DNA of 64,000 bases from an uncultured Bacilli bacterium (GCA_934131175.1 CAKOZD010000004.1:17507-81506); one strand, 5' to 3'; shown: positions 33,442-44,867, numbered from the stretch's first letter. Notes: generated from the letters alone by a model not told the origin. Numbers and translations: made by a program.

Positions 33442-34965
33442 TTAACCTTGTTTTGTATAAGTCTTTTCTGTTGGTATTTCTTGTACTCCATCATAAATCA
33501 TTATTTCTTCTCCAACATAAATCATATCAGCATTTACAATATTTGGATTGTAATATAATATTACATCTTCTGTTGTATTAAATCTAGTTGCAATTTCTGA
33601 TAGAGTGTCCCCTTCTATAACTTCGTAGAATGTTTTACCATCATCAGACTCATCTTCATTTGTATTTAATGTTATTGTTTTATTAGAATCACTTGATAAT
33701 AATTTAGTAATTGTTAATGTAGAACCACTTACAACAACAGATACAATTAGAGTAATTAAGAAAGCTTTTTTTCTTGTCTTTCCTTTTATCTTACTTAATT
33801 TTTCTGCTAATGCATCATAAATATCTAAAGTTTTATCTAATCCTCTATCTACTAAGTCATATAGTATATCTAATAATGAACTTATATTTAATTTTTTTAA
33901 ACTATTTATTAGTATTTTTATTTTGCTTGTTTTAGATGTTTTTTTACTTTCTTCATCATCAAATTCGTCATCATCAAAGTCTTCGTCATCAAATTCTTCG
34001 TCATCAAATTCTTCATTGTCAAATTCTTCATCATCAAAGTCTTCGCTAGCATATTCTTCTTCATCATATTCTTCATCTTCTTCGTATCCATCATTTGAAT
34101 CATCACAGTCTGAAGTACAAAAGTGACTAATTGAGCATGTCTGTATTGGTTCACTACTGTTTCCATCATATTTAAATGCTTTATCAAATTTCATACTATA
34201 GGCAATACCTCCATCAACACATACTACTTTTCTTACTTTTCCATCTGCTCCACGTAAGTTTAAGTTTTGATTTTGACGAAGTTGAATAGGAGTATGTCCT
34301 ATTACTATAATTGATGATGCATCTGGTAAATGACTTGCTGCTAATTCATCATCTTCTACACTTCTTCCTTTTCTATACCAAAGAATATTAGAAGCAATAT
34401 TAAGTGATTTTTCATCTGTTAATGATTCTACATCTCTTAAATTTAGATTTGGATATTTTTTATATACTTTATCGTCAAAATATGCATGTGCTAGACAATA
34501 AGTCTTTCCTTTATAGAAATGTTTTCTTTGTATAGGTTGACTTCCTAACCAATTCTTTAATAAATCAAATTCTTTTTTATTTGTGTGATGTAATAAAGCT
34601 ACATCCTCTAATGTTTTATCTCCACCATTCTTTTCAATACTATCTGCGTAAGCCTTTGTTGTATCTATTGTATCCATATAACCAAATAGCATTTGATCAT
34701 GGTTTCCTGGAATATAGTGTACTCTTTCTGGATATTTATCAGAAAGACCTTTTATTCTTCTTAATAATCTTATTCCATCTTTTCCATCTAAGTTTTTTCC
34801 TCTATCAGTAGCATCTCCTAATATATAAATATGTTCATATTCATCTAAATAATATTTTTCAATCTTATCTACTGGCCAACTAAATGAGTGAAAATCACTT
34901 AGTACTACAAATGACCCCTTTTTAAACTTTTCCTTTTTATTCATTTCTAAATCCCCCAATTTCAA
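33442..34965 (-). CDS. Calcineurin-like metallophosphoesterase fused to an acidic repeat region, a TM helix and a C-terminal LysM domain
   Basis: GDATDRGKN...GNHD phosphoesterase motifs. An (E/D)EFDD repeat tract. A hydrophobic helix, FLITLIVSVVVSG. A LysM motif, YEVIEGDTLSEIATRFNTTEDVILYYNPNI. Confidence 0.65.
   Translation of the reverse strand: MKLGDLEMNKKEKFKKGSFVVLSDFHSFSWPVDKIEKYYLDEYEHIYILGDATDRGKNLDGKDGIRLLRRIKGLSDKYPERVHYIPGNHDQMLFGYMDTIDTTKAYADSIEKNGGDKTLEDVALLHHTNKKEFDLLKNWLGSQPIQRKHFYKGKTYCLAHAYFDDKVYKKYPNLNLRDVESLTDEKSLNIASNILWYRKGRSVEDDELAASHLPDASSIIVIGHTPIQLRQNQNLNLRGADGKVRKVVCVDGGIAYSMKFDKAFKYDGNSSEPIQTCSISHFCTSDCDDSNDGYEEDEEYDEEEYASEDFDDEEFDNEEFDDEEFDDEDFDDDEFDDEESKKTSKTSKIKILINSLKKLNISSLLDILYDLVDRGLDKTLDIYDALAEKLSKIKGKTRKKAFLITLIVSVVVSGSTLTITKLLSSDSNKTITLNTNEDESDDGKTFYEVIEGDTLSEIATRFNTTEDVILYYNPNIVNADMIYVGEEIMIYDGVQEIPTEKTYTKQG
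33950..34075 (-). repeat. Tandem 15-18-nt repeats encoding the (E/D)EFDD acidic tract
   Basis: Reiterated ttcgtcatcatcaaa(g/t)tcttc units on the plus strand. The repeats generate spurious ORFs on both strands. Confidence 0.7.
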
Positions 34966-40670: not shown

Positions 40671-40874
40671 TTAATAATCTCTATTTCTATTAGCACGATC
40701 TCTTTTTCTAGAATTCTTGATTCCTTCTTTTTTTGCTGCTCTTCTCTTTACTCCTGGCTTATCATAAGCTTCTCTTTTTTTCCATTCTGAAGGGACACCG
40801 TCTCTTGCTACTTTTTGTTTGAACTTTCTTAGAGCTTGATCAAGATTACCTCTAACAGTTACTTTAGTTGCCAT
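40671..40874 (-). CDS. rpsU: 30S ribosomal protein S21
   Basis: MATKVTVRGNLDQALRKFKQKVARDGV...RRAAKKEG. gggagg SD. Confidence 0.9.
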   Translation of the reverse strand: MATKVTVRGNLDQALRKFKQKVARDGVPSEWKKREAYDKPGVKRRAAKKEGIKNSRKRDRANRNRDY

Positions 40875-40956
40875 CACTTTCCCTCCCTTCACTTCAACTA
40901 CAATGAATTATACCAAAAGATTTTTTCTTTTTCAACCTATTTTTTGACATTTTTTA

Positions 40957-41106
40957 TTATTTTTCAAAGAAAACATACAAATTTCTTAAAAATTTTCCAA
41001 GATAAAAGCCAGAATTAATTATAAATTTACAAATTATTGGTAAAGTTAGGATTATCAATATTATTATAGCAACACTTAAAACTATTTTTATTATTTTAGA
41101 GGACAT
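40957..41106 (-). CDS. Putative small hydrophobic immunity-like protein (49 aa) overlapping the 3' end of the second bacteriocin precursor
   Basis: ATG inside peptide B's last codons. Encodes MSSKIIKIVLSVAIIILIILTLPIICKFIINSGFYLGKFLRNLYVFFEK, one TM helix plus a basic tail. The only SD-like sequence is far away (18 nt). Confidence 0.3.
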   Translation of the reverse strand: MSSKIIKIVLSVAIIILIILTLPIICKFIINSGFYLGKFLRNLYVFFEK

Positions 41107-41261
41107 AAATTATTTTCTGCTATTCTCCTTATTCCAGACCCTAGAGAATATCCTGCATCTTGTAATATTTTAATTACATTTACAATAGCATTTATAACTG
41201 GTCCAGTTACATTTGTCCCACCTTTTATACTATCTAATTCTATTTCATTTAATTTAGTCAT
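41091..41261 (-). CDS. Double-glycine-leader bacteriocin precursor peptide B (56 aa)
   Basis: MTKLNEIELDSIKGG leader, which fits the LxxxELxxIxGG consensus. Core is TNVTGPVINAIVNVIKILQDAGYSLGSGIRRIAENNLCPLK. aaggag SD 8 nt upstream. The start overlaps the stop of peptide A (taATG). Confidence 0.6.
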   Translation of the reverse strand: MTKLNEIELDSIKGGTNVTGPVINAIVNVIKILQDAGYSLGSGIRRIAENNLCPLK

Positions 41262-41413
41262 TAACTGCACTCCTTTGGATTTGTTATTCCTTCAATTACA
41301 CCACAAATAAATATTACTAAGGCTGCTATTCCAAGACCTCCTAATACAGTTATTCCTCCACCTTTTACTTTTTCTAATTCGCCTGTAGAAAGATTTTTAA
41401 TTGTTATCACCAT
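41261..41413 (-). CDS. Double-glycine-leader bacteriocin precursor peptide A (50 aa)
   Basis: MVITIKNLSTGELEKVKGG leader (LSxxELxxVxGG). Gly-rich hydrophobic core, GITVLGGLGIAALVIFICGVIEGITNPKECS, with GxxxG-like motifs and two Cys. The start overlaps the last codons of the upstream 137-aa ORF. Confidence 0.55.
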   Translation of the reverse strand: MVITIKNLSTGELEKVKGGGITVLGGLGIAALVIFICGVIEGITNPKECS

Positions 41414-43954: not shown

Positions 43955-44045
43955 CTAGATAAATTATAAATCTTTGTCAACGCGTGATAAAAAGATAAAG
44001 ATTCTTTTGATTAAGAAATTAATCTAAAATACACAATTTATCCAT

Positions 44046-44791: not shown

Positions 44792-44867
44792 TGGTGGAGC
44801 ATAGCGGGATCGAACCGCTGACCTCCACGGTGCAAACGTGGCGCTCTCCCAGCTGAGCTAATGCCCC
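44792..44867 (-). tRNA. tRNA-Ala (anticodon TGC)
   Basis: Minus-strand sequence GGGGCATTAGCTCAGCTGGGAGAGCGCCACGTTTGCACCGTGGAGGTCAGCGGTTCGATCCCGCTATGCTCCACCA. Cloverleaf with G3:U70, a TGC anticodon, and a CCA end. Confidence 0.9.

Follow-up and report, generated by a model that had tools for sequence, protein, structure and literature searches.

Organization of the peptide locus

The window analyzed here, a 64-kb stretch of DNA from an uncultured Bacilli bacterium, carries on its minus strand a chain of five ORFs that encode an ABC exporter, a 137-aa protein, the peptide precursors pepA and pepB, and a 49-aa hydrophobic protein (Table 1). Successive ORFs overlap, the 137-aa gene with the exporter gene by 20 nt and with pepA by 17 nt, pepA with pepB by 1 nt, and pepB with the 49-aa ORF by 16 nt. 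Because the ORFs overlap head to tail, coupled translation of all five is probable, with pepA and pepB made in similar amounts. The original prediction had consisted of two adjacent minus-strand peptide ORFs of 50 and 56 aa, and its coordinates and sequences proved exact. It had also placed a C39-ABC exporter gene immediately upstream; the linkage to an exporter held, but the genes are not adjacent, as the 137-aa ORF lies between them. This accessory gene, the 49-aa candidate immunity gene, and the old vertical inheritance of the locus had been overlooked.

Transcription most likely begins upstream of the exporter gene, where a candidate promoter sits in a 174-nt gap. Promoter-like matches are barely enriched in this AT-rich DNA (40 found vs 30.9 expected in a consensus scan), so this promoter is only a tentative candidate. 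Downstream of the operon, a strong promoter-like site precedes rpsU itself (TTGAAA, 17 nt, and a TG-extended TATAAT; 40935–40907), and a search for intrinsic terminators on the operon strand from the 49-aa ORF to rpsU found none. The remaining neighborhood is the usual Firmicute block rpsU-yqeY-yqfC-yqfD-ybeY-dgkA-cdd-era-recO. A tRNA-Ala (TGC) located approximately 0.9 kb upstream of the exporter gene (44792–44867, minus strand) was the sole match of Rfam and ARAGORN searches over the window, which detected no RNA elements in the peptide locus. The rpsU ORF, as called mechanically (40671–40892, minus strand), has a GTG start and 73 aa; because all orthologs begin with MATKV, its translation most likely begins at the ATG at 40874 (67 aa). 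Elsewhere in the window, a 507-aa ORF (33442–34965, minus strand) contains a long, strongly acidic Asp/Glu-Phe repeat run, EEFDNEEFDDEEFDDEDFDDDEFDDEE, in the middle of the protein, as read from the ORF listing.

Table 1. Features of the peptide locus, in window coordinates
Feature	Position	Strand	Basis
Candidate operon promoter (TTATCA, 16-nt spacer, TATAAT)	43963–43990	-	Consensus scan, 10/12 matches
ABC exporter gene (C39 peptidase + transmembrane domain + ATPase), 693 aa	41791–43872	-	Pfam, NCBIfam, PDB alignment
Accessory protein, 137 aa	41397–41810	-	ORF listing and ortholog conservation
pepA precursor, 50 aa	41261–41413	-	Translation, orthologs, dN/dS
pepA leader, 19 aa	41357–41413	-	
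pepA core, 31 aa	41264–41356	-	
Shine-Dalgarno sequence AAGGAG of pepB	41270–41275	-	Read directly; inside the pepA K-E-C codons
pepB precursor, 56 aa	41091–41261	-	Translation, profile search, dN/dS
pepB leader, 15 aa	41217–41261	-	
pepB core, 41 aa	41094–41216	-	
Hydrophobic membrane ORF, 49 aa, candidate immunity protein	40957–41106	-	Frame conservation, dN/dS

Conservation of the peptide genes

Both precursors divide at a double glycine into a leader and a core (MVITIKNLSTGELEKVKGG and GITVLGGLGIAALVIFICGVIEGITNPKECS in pepA; MTKLNEIELDSIKGG and TNVTGPVINAIVNVIKILQDAGYSLGSGIRRIAENNLCPLK in pepB), with predicted cleavage sites after G19 and G15, respectively. The pepA leader would be 18 aa long if the GTG at its second codon is the start, as in its relatives. 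The leader consensus that had been claimed is present in both peptides, with L at -12, E at -8, L at -7, V or I at -4, and GG at -2/-1. When the strict pattern [LIVM]x3[ED][LIVM]x2[IVL]xGG was searched for in the first 32 residues of the ORFs of 30–120 aa in all six frames of the window, only pepA and pepB matched, and there were no matches in 40 shuffles. The GG was invariant in alignments A1 and A3. The AAGGAG Shine-Dalgarno sequence claimed for pepB lies 8 nt upstream of its ATG, and the accompanying taATG, in which the pepA TAA and the pepB ATG have one base in common, was likewise confirmed. At the same spot before pepB, the relatives have AGGTG or AGGAG together with an ATGA or TAATG stop/start overlap, and the conservation of this overlap would favor the coupled translation of pepA and pepB.

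That pepA and pepB are unexpressed frames, open by chance in AT-rich intergenic sequence, might be supposed from their small size, from the weak Shine-Dalgarno sequence of pepA, and from the frequency with which metagenome gene callers skip pepA and the 49-aa ORF. However, the comparative data refute this explanation, which we consider to have practically no probability. Besides the absence of the leader motif from shuffled sequence, the frames are conserved across 12 species even though their synonymous sites are near saturation (pS 0.64–0.68), both genes are intact in all eight conspecific strains examined, and pepB belongs to a family of 226 clusters. In the same 12-species comparison, the leaders drift almost neutrally, with dN/dS values outside the consensus positions of approximately 1.0 (pepA) and 0.8 (pepB), whereas the cores are under purifying selection, with values of 0.18 (pepA) and 0.14 (pepB). 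pepA and pepB are genuine, conserved genes for double-glycine-leader peptides.

The pair had been expected to be missed by standard annotation. This expectation was borne out for pepA in metagenome gene calls: in the public metagenome contigs inspected, pepB was always called, and pepA and the 49-aa ORF were usually uncalled. It failed for pepB, and for both genes under NCBI PGAP, in which pepA and pepB are the hypothetical proteins MDD6402569.1 and MDD6402570.1. The source records of the peptide family that we inspected either had no name or were labeled only as "hypothetical protein" or "unknown".

Characteristics of the two peptides

The predicted mature pepA peptide, of 31 aa and 3056.67 Da, is very hydrophobic (GRAVY 1.35) with a net charge of -1, and its core would essentially be a helix that spans the membrane and ends in a polar stretch. 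The invariant tail of the core is GVIEG-ITNP-xx-C; in alignment A3, which covers pepA, the invariant positions are F35, G38, E41-G-I-T-N-P46, and then C49. Among 64 distinct pepA/pepB pairs, pepA contains one cysteine in 54, two in nine, and none in one, and the pepA of the window is a two-cysteine variant. A word-based search for pepA returned close relatives only, in six clusters; when the DNA beside the pepB relatives was read, a pepA homolog was found in every complete locus. Sequence searches of pepA against all PDB chains gave chance-level matches or nothing.

The predicted mature pepB peptide, of 41 aa and 4333.39 Da, has a net charge of +2 and forms an amphipathic helix with a hydrophobic moment of 0.65. 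The invariant parts of its core are AG-x-x-LGSGIRR and C-P-L. Its relatives fell into 120 clusters with 57–96% identity, all of 55–59 aa, in which the leader is variable, the GG invariant, and the core AGYSLGSGIRR...CPL almost invariant. A profile search of 1.84 billion representatives identified 226 clusters at 50% identity (E <= 1e-3), nearly all of 52–58 aa and matched end to end. The AlphaFold model, of moderate confidence (pLDDT 65), is a single long helix spanning residues 19–52. In the 64 distinct pairs, pepB always has exactly one cysteine, located 2–4 residues from its end. The pepB profile matched PDB chains at chance level only (ARX1 and enolase, E > 0.5) or not at all, and the core was not detectably similar to any solved structure or to any named family of bacteriocins; the models of known families were matched by pepB through its leader only.

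A search of the peptides against bacteriocin HMMs, which the original prediction had suggested, thus gave a divided answer: pepA orthologs reach the cut-off of TIGR03949, but the pepB core matches no named family. Against the curated cut-off of 21.5 bits for TIGR03949 (class IIb, lactobin A/cerein 7B family), the pepA of the window scored 20.5 bits, the orthologs at L008 and L012 scored 22.2 and 25.0 bits, and the others scored 16–17 bits, which points to pepA as a borderline member. Like the members of TIGR03949, pepA has a GG leader followed by a hydrophobic core rich in small residues; unlike them, it has the EGITNP-xx-C tail, which, as far as the match shows, lies outside the family model, the alignments ending before it. 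The lactococcin G-beta family was matched weakly by 11 of the 12 pepA copies; the cut-off of NF038034 (lactococcin G-beta/enterocin 1071B; 37 bits) was not reached, the best pepA ortholog scoring 26.5 bits and the pepB of the window 12.9. Similarly, the gathering score of PF10439 (Bacteriocin_IIc; 27.1 bits) was not reached by the pepB of the window (12.4 bits), and PF10439 was not among the matches listed for the pepA of the window. Ten of the 12 pepA orthologs matched PF10439 with a best E-value of 2.5e-5, these being E-values and not bit scores set against the cut-off.

The 64 distinct pairs, all from uncultured gut Bacilli, have several features in common. pepA adjoins pepB in every pair. 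The GxxxG-like motifs that had been claimed are invariant as GxxxG in both cores (64/64), as GVIEG in pepA and GYSLG in pepB, and a cysteine occurs in the last nine residues of both peptides in 63 of the 64. The mean net charge is -0.6 for pepA and +0.6 for pepB. The paired C-terminal cysteines suggest an intermolecular disulfide between pepA and pepB. A literature search found no precedent for a disulfide-linked two-peptide bacteriocin, which is not proof of absence, and full-text searches found no paper with the core motifs LGSGIRR, GSGIRRI, or EGITNP.

These pairings also bear on whether the locus instead encodes two independent one-peptide (class IId-like) bacteriocins, each active alone and served by a common exporter. 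Multi-bacteriocin loci with a common exporter are frequent, as in the blp and pln loci, and the pepB family is far larger and easier to detect than that of pepA (226 clusters by profile search vs 6 by word-based search). Nevertheless, independent peptides are very unlikely, given that pepA adjoins pepB in every complete locus, that their stop/start overlap is conserved, and that the GxxxG motifs and C-terminal cysteines are kept together in 63 of the 64 pairs. Moreover, only one candidate immunity gene is present, instead of one for each peptide, and pepA matches two-peptide families specifically.

Exporter and accessory protein

The exporter matched PF03412 (9e-32), PF00664 (3e-27), and PF00005 (6e-25), all above the cut-offs, and TIGR01193 (5e-93). 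With an N-terminal C39 domain containing the catalytic Cys, a six-helix transmembrane domain, and an ATPase in one chain, it corresponds to the definition of a PCAT. Its best solved relatives, both matched over the full length, are PCAT1 of Clostridium thermocellum (4ry2, 2e-77) and ComA of Streptococcus (8hf7, 4e-69), with which it has the domain order and the catalytic-Cys motif in common; this motif, QxxxxDCG, is intact, and its DCG is aligned with that of 4ry2. The exporter fell far short of the trusted cut-offs that NCBIfam sets for its named exporter subfamilies, and it also scored on the model of the mycoplasma "peptidase domain-containing ABC transporter" Mbov_0121. The exporter gene is found in the related cassettes too.

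Unlike PCAT1 and ComA, the exporter has as its partner a short accessory protein with a weak resemblance to the Mycoplasma MAG1140 family. This 137-aa protein consists of an N-terminal membrane helix followed by approximately 105 residues predicted to be strand-rich, and it is conserved at 28–44% identity in 11 species. It matched neither HlyD nor any other Pfam family. Five of the 11 orthologs gave a weak full-length match to the NCBIfam model MAG1140, with a best E-value of 1.7e-4, below the cut-off, and three matched the MG406 family. The 137-aa protein and the MAG1140 family may together represent a minimal class of partners for C39-ABC exporters, and these similarities hint that the exporter and its partner form a minimal module shared with mycoplasmas. 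The AlphaFold model of the 137-aa protein, which was based on a shallow alignment, had a pLDDT of 49.7 and was unusable beyond the helix at residues 10–32. Almost all returns of a word-based homolog search with this protein were near-identical to it, and nothing relevant was found in the literature on Mbov_0121, MAG1140, or MG406.

No histidine kinase or response regulator genes, which would mark a ComC/BlpC-type system, were found beside the cassette, whether in the window or at the related loci. Within the cassette, there was no match to LanM, radical-SAM, or glycosyltransferase enzymes, the modification enzymes that would point to a lanthipeptide, sactipeptide, or glycocin.

Membrane ORF downstream of pepB

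The ATG of the 49-aa ORF lies within the Leu-Cys codons of pepB. Its frame is open in all 12 species, in which the other five frames are rich in stops; its dN/dS is 0.35, and it contains the conserved motif G-x-Y-x-G-x-F-[RK]. The ORF occurs at an offset of -16 or -13 in approximately 52 of 65 distinct cassettes, one of which is not beside rpsU, and is missing from approximately 20% of the cassettes. This hydrophobic ORF is a candidate for the immunity gene of the cassette. An AGGAGA in the Arg-Arg codons of pepB was considered as the Shine-Dalgarno sequence of this ORF and rejected; it is 18 nt from the ATG, and the relatives have AGAAGA.

Distribution and inheritance of the cassette

In at least 12 species-level genomes, all five genes are found in this order immediately upstream of rpsU; these genomes are classified as uncultured "Mollicutes", "Erysipelotrichaceae", and "Bacilli" and come from human, rumen, rabbit, mouse, and goat gut. 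The identities to the window were 81–84% for Era, 68–80% for Cdd and YbeY, and 41–51% for YqfD among the housekeeping proteins, and 55–64% for the exporter, 28–44% for the accessory protein, 46–57% for pepA, and 59–70% for pepB in the cassette. Much more remote relatives of pepB, "unknown [Clostridium sp. CAG:433]" among them, likewise have a pepA-like partner and are located just upstream of rpsU, and the CAG:433 lineage lacks both the accessory gene and the 49-aa ORF. At one locus (L027), the complete five-gene unit is found beside an aldolase gene instead of rpsU, and because it is complete at this different chromosomal site, the five genes move together. The exact pepB sequence was present in 1591 blocks of a public assembly index, Hadza samples among them, and the distant CAG:433 relative was present in 1842 blocks. 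The producer, an uncultured bacterium, is very common in the human gut.

To sample the relatives independently of the peptides, they were collected from metagenome contigs through S21, which gave 70 loci with enough upstream sequence. A pepB-like gene was located within 1.3 kb of rpsU in approximately 60 of these 70 loci and was absent near rpsU in approximately 10, which included whole S21 clades. The cassette is dispensable, given that it is missing in these approximately 10 relatives. A tblastn search with pepB against plasmid and phage collections gave no match. Together with the S21 sampling, this indicates that the cassette is old, has been mostly inherited vertically, and has occasionally been lost.

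Such a history raises the alternative that the peptide pair is not a weapon but an exported signal or a self-directed membrane factor of the lineage. Processed and released by the same exporter, and possibly disulfide-linked as a heterodimer, it would then act on the producer's own population, for example in cell–cell signaling, envelope physiology, or a process linked to sporulation. The deep, mostly vertical retention upstream of rpsU in approximately 60 of the 70 S21-sampled relatives, extending even to lineages with a visibly much more diverged S21, such as CAG:433, is in keeping with this, as are the near-neutral charge of the peptides, the lineages that lack an immunity-like ORF, and the lack of a pepB match in the plasmid and phage collections. 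In addition, pepB (59–70%) is about as conserved as Cdd and YbeY (68–80%) and more conserved than YqfD (41–51%). However, no histidine kinase or response regulator accompanies the cassette at any locus inspected, and at 31 and 41 aa, with conserved sequences, pepA and pepB are unlike ComC/BlpC-type pheromones, which are short and strain-variable. A hydrophobic 31-aa GxxxG peptide with a co-inherited small membrane protein is a better fit to a toxin and its immunity protein, and pepA is related to class IIb families. Furthermore, the cassette is not essential, having been lost from several clades. On balance, we consider a signal or self-directed factor quite unlikely.

The conserved cysteines allow a further reading, in which pepA and pepB form a disulfide-linked heterodimer that serves as an ancient, lineage-wide exported factor encoded beside rpsU, and not as an ordinary competitive bacteriocin. 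Such a heterodimer, which we regard as unlikely though not far-fetched, might for example carry a conserved signal within the population or act on membranes via a conserved receptor, in a major group of small-genome uncultured gut Bacilli.

Comparison with class IIb bacteriocins and proposed function

Class IIb bacteriocins are characterized by adjacent genes in one operon, GG leaders of 15–30 residues, a dedicated ABC transporter, an accessory protein, an immunity gene in the operon, and GxxxG motifs (PMC2850506). Every one of these features that can be judged from sequence was found at the locus, with the accessory and immunity roles being putative. As in the loci of lactococcin G, enterocin 1071, and plantaricin EF/JK, two different peptide genes are adjacent in what appears to be one operon, their double-glycine leaders are 15–19 residues long, and both cores are predicted to be helical with GxxxG motifs. 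A dedicated C39-ABC exporter gene, predicted to export the peptides, is likewise present with an extra accessory gene, and a small membrane-protein gene directly follows the peptide genes.

The locus also departs from a textbook two-peptide bacteriocin in several ways. The sequence of the pepB core is unrelated to that of any named class IIb member, and each peptide has one conserved C-terminal cysteine, forming the pair described above. At 137 aa, the accessory protein is short; it contains a single membrane helix and matches neither HlyD nor any other Pfam family. The cassette occupies a fixed chromosomal site beside rpsU and is conserved across the whole lineage, and no three-component regulatory genes are found near pepA and pepB. 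The peptides are near-neutral, whereas typical members of the class are cationic.

Several of these observations count against a bacteriocin. The near-neutral peptides deviate from the cationic norm of class II; a net positive charge is typical of class II bacteriocins, although not strictly defining. Bacteriocin islands are usually variable and mobile, whereas this is an old, vertically inherited locus at a fixed site, with cores under strong purifying selection. Approximately 20% of the cassettes are without the candidate immunity ORF, and CAG:433 is also without the accessory gene. The dissimilarity of the pepB core to named families and an accessory protein that is not HlyD-like point in the same direction.

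Even with these reservations, we consider it probable that the five genes make up an operon for a two-peptide (class IIb-like) bacteriocin. In such an operon, the C39 domain of the exporter would recognize the amphipathic double-glycine leaders and cut after the GG, and the exporter would secrete the 31-aa hydrophobic pepA and the 41-aa amphipathic pepB, probably with the aid of the membrane-anchored 137-aa protein. Outside the cell, the pepA and pepB helices would pair via their invariant GxxxG motifs and may be cross-linked via the one conserved cysteine near each C-terminus. The paired peptides would then permeabilize the membranes of competitors, probably through a conserved membrane-protein receptor, and the 49-aa membrane protein would guard the producer. 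From the comparative sequence data, the pair is most likely an uncharacterized two-peptide bacteriocin whose genes have been inherited at one and the same chromosomal position throughout a lineage. Should the peptides prove active, they would constitute a narrow-lineage antimicrobial of wide distribution, which could influence the structure of gut communities; both are short and easily synthesized.

Variant loci

Several of the related loci deviate from the usual arrangement. In one conspecific strain (L023, 3951–7171), a Cas9-like gene (>1083 aa, with HNH and RuvC matches) starts approximately 280 nt downstream of pepB, a spot that rpsU holds in all the other conspecific strains. In a goat-gut MAG (L015, 2027–4038), a 560-aa ORF, with an N-terminus that we take by eye to resemble a serine recombinase, lies directly upstream of pepB; the exporter gene, the accessory gene, and pepA are missing, and pepB and the membrane ORF are kept. 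This looks like the insertion of a mobile element that truncated the cassette. At L045, a pepA-like gene is located approximately 770 nt upstream of rpsU with no recognizable pepB, and at L082 the C-terminal tail of pepA, including its cysteine, has been replaced; these two may be decaying cassettes. In a distant relative (L031, 1297–1713), the leaders of pepA and pepB are identical (MQKLNEEEMKNIKAG) and end in AG, not GG, which suggests a recent gene conversion between them and an Ala-Gly cleavage site.
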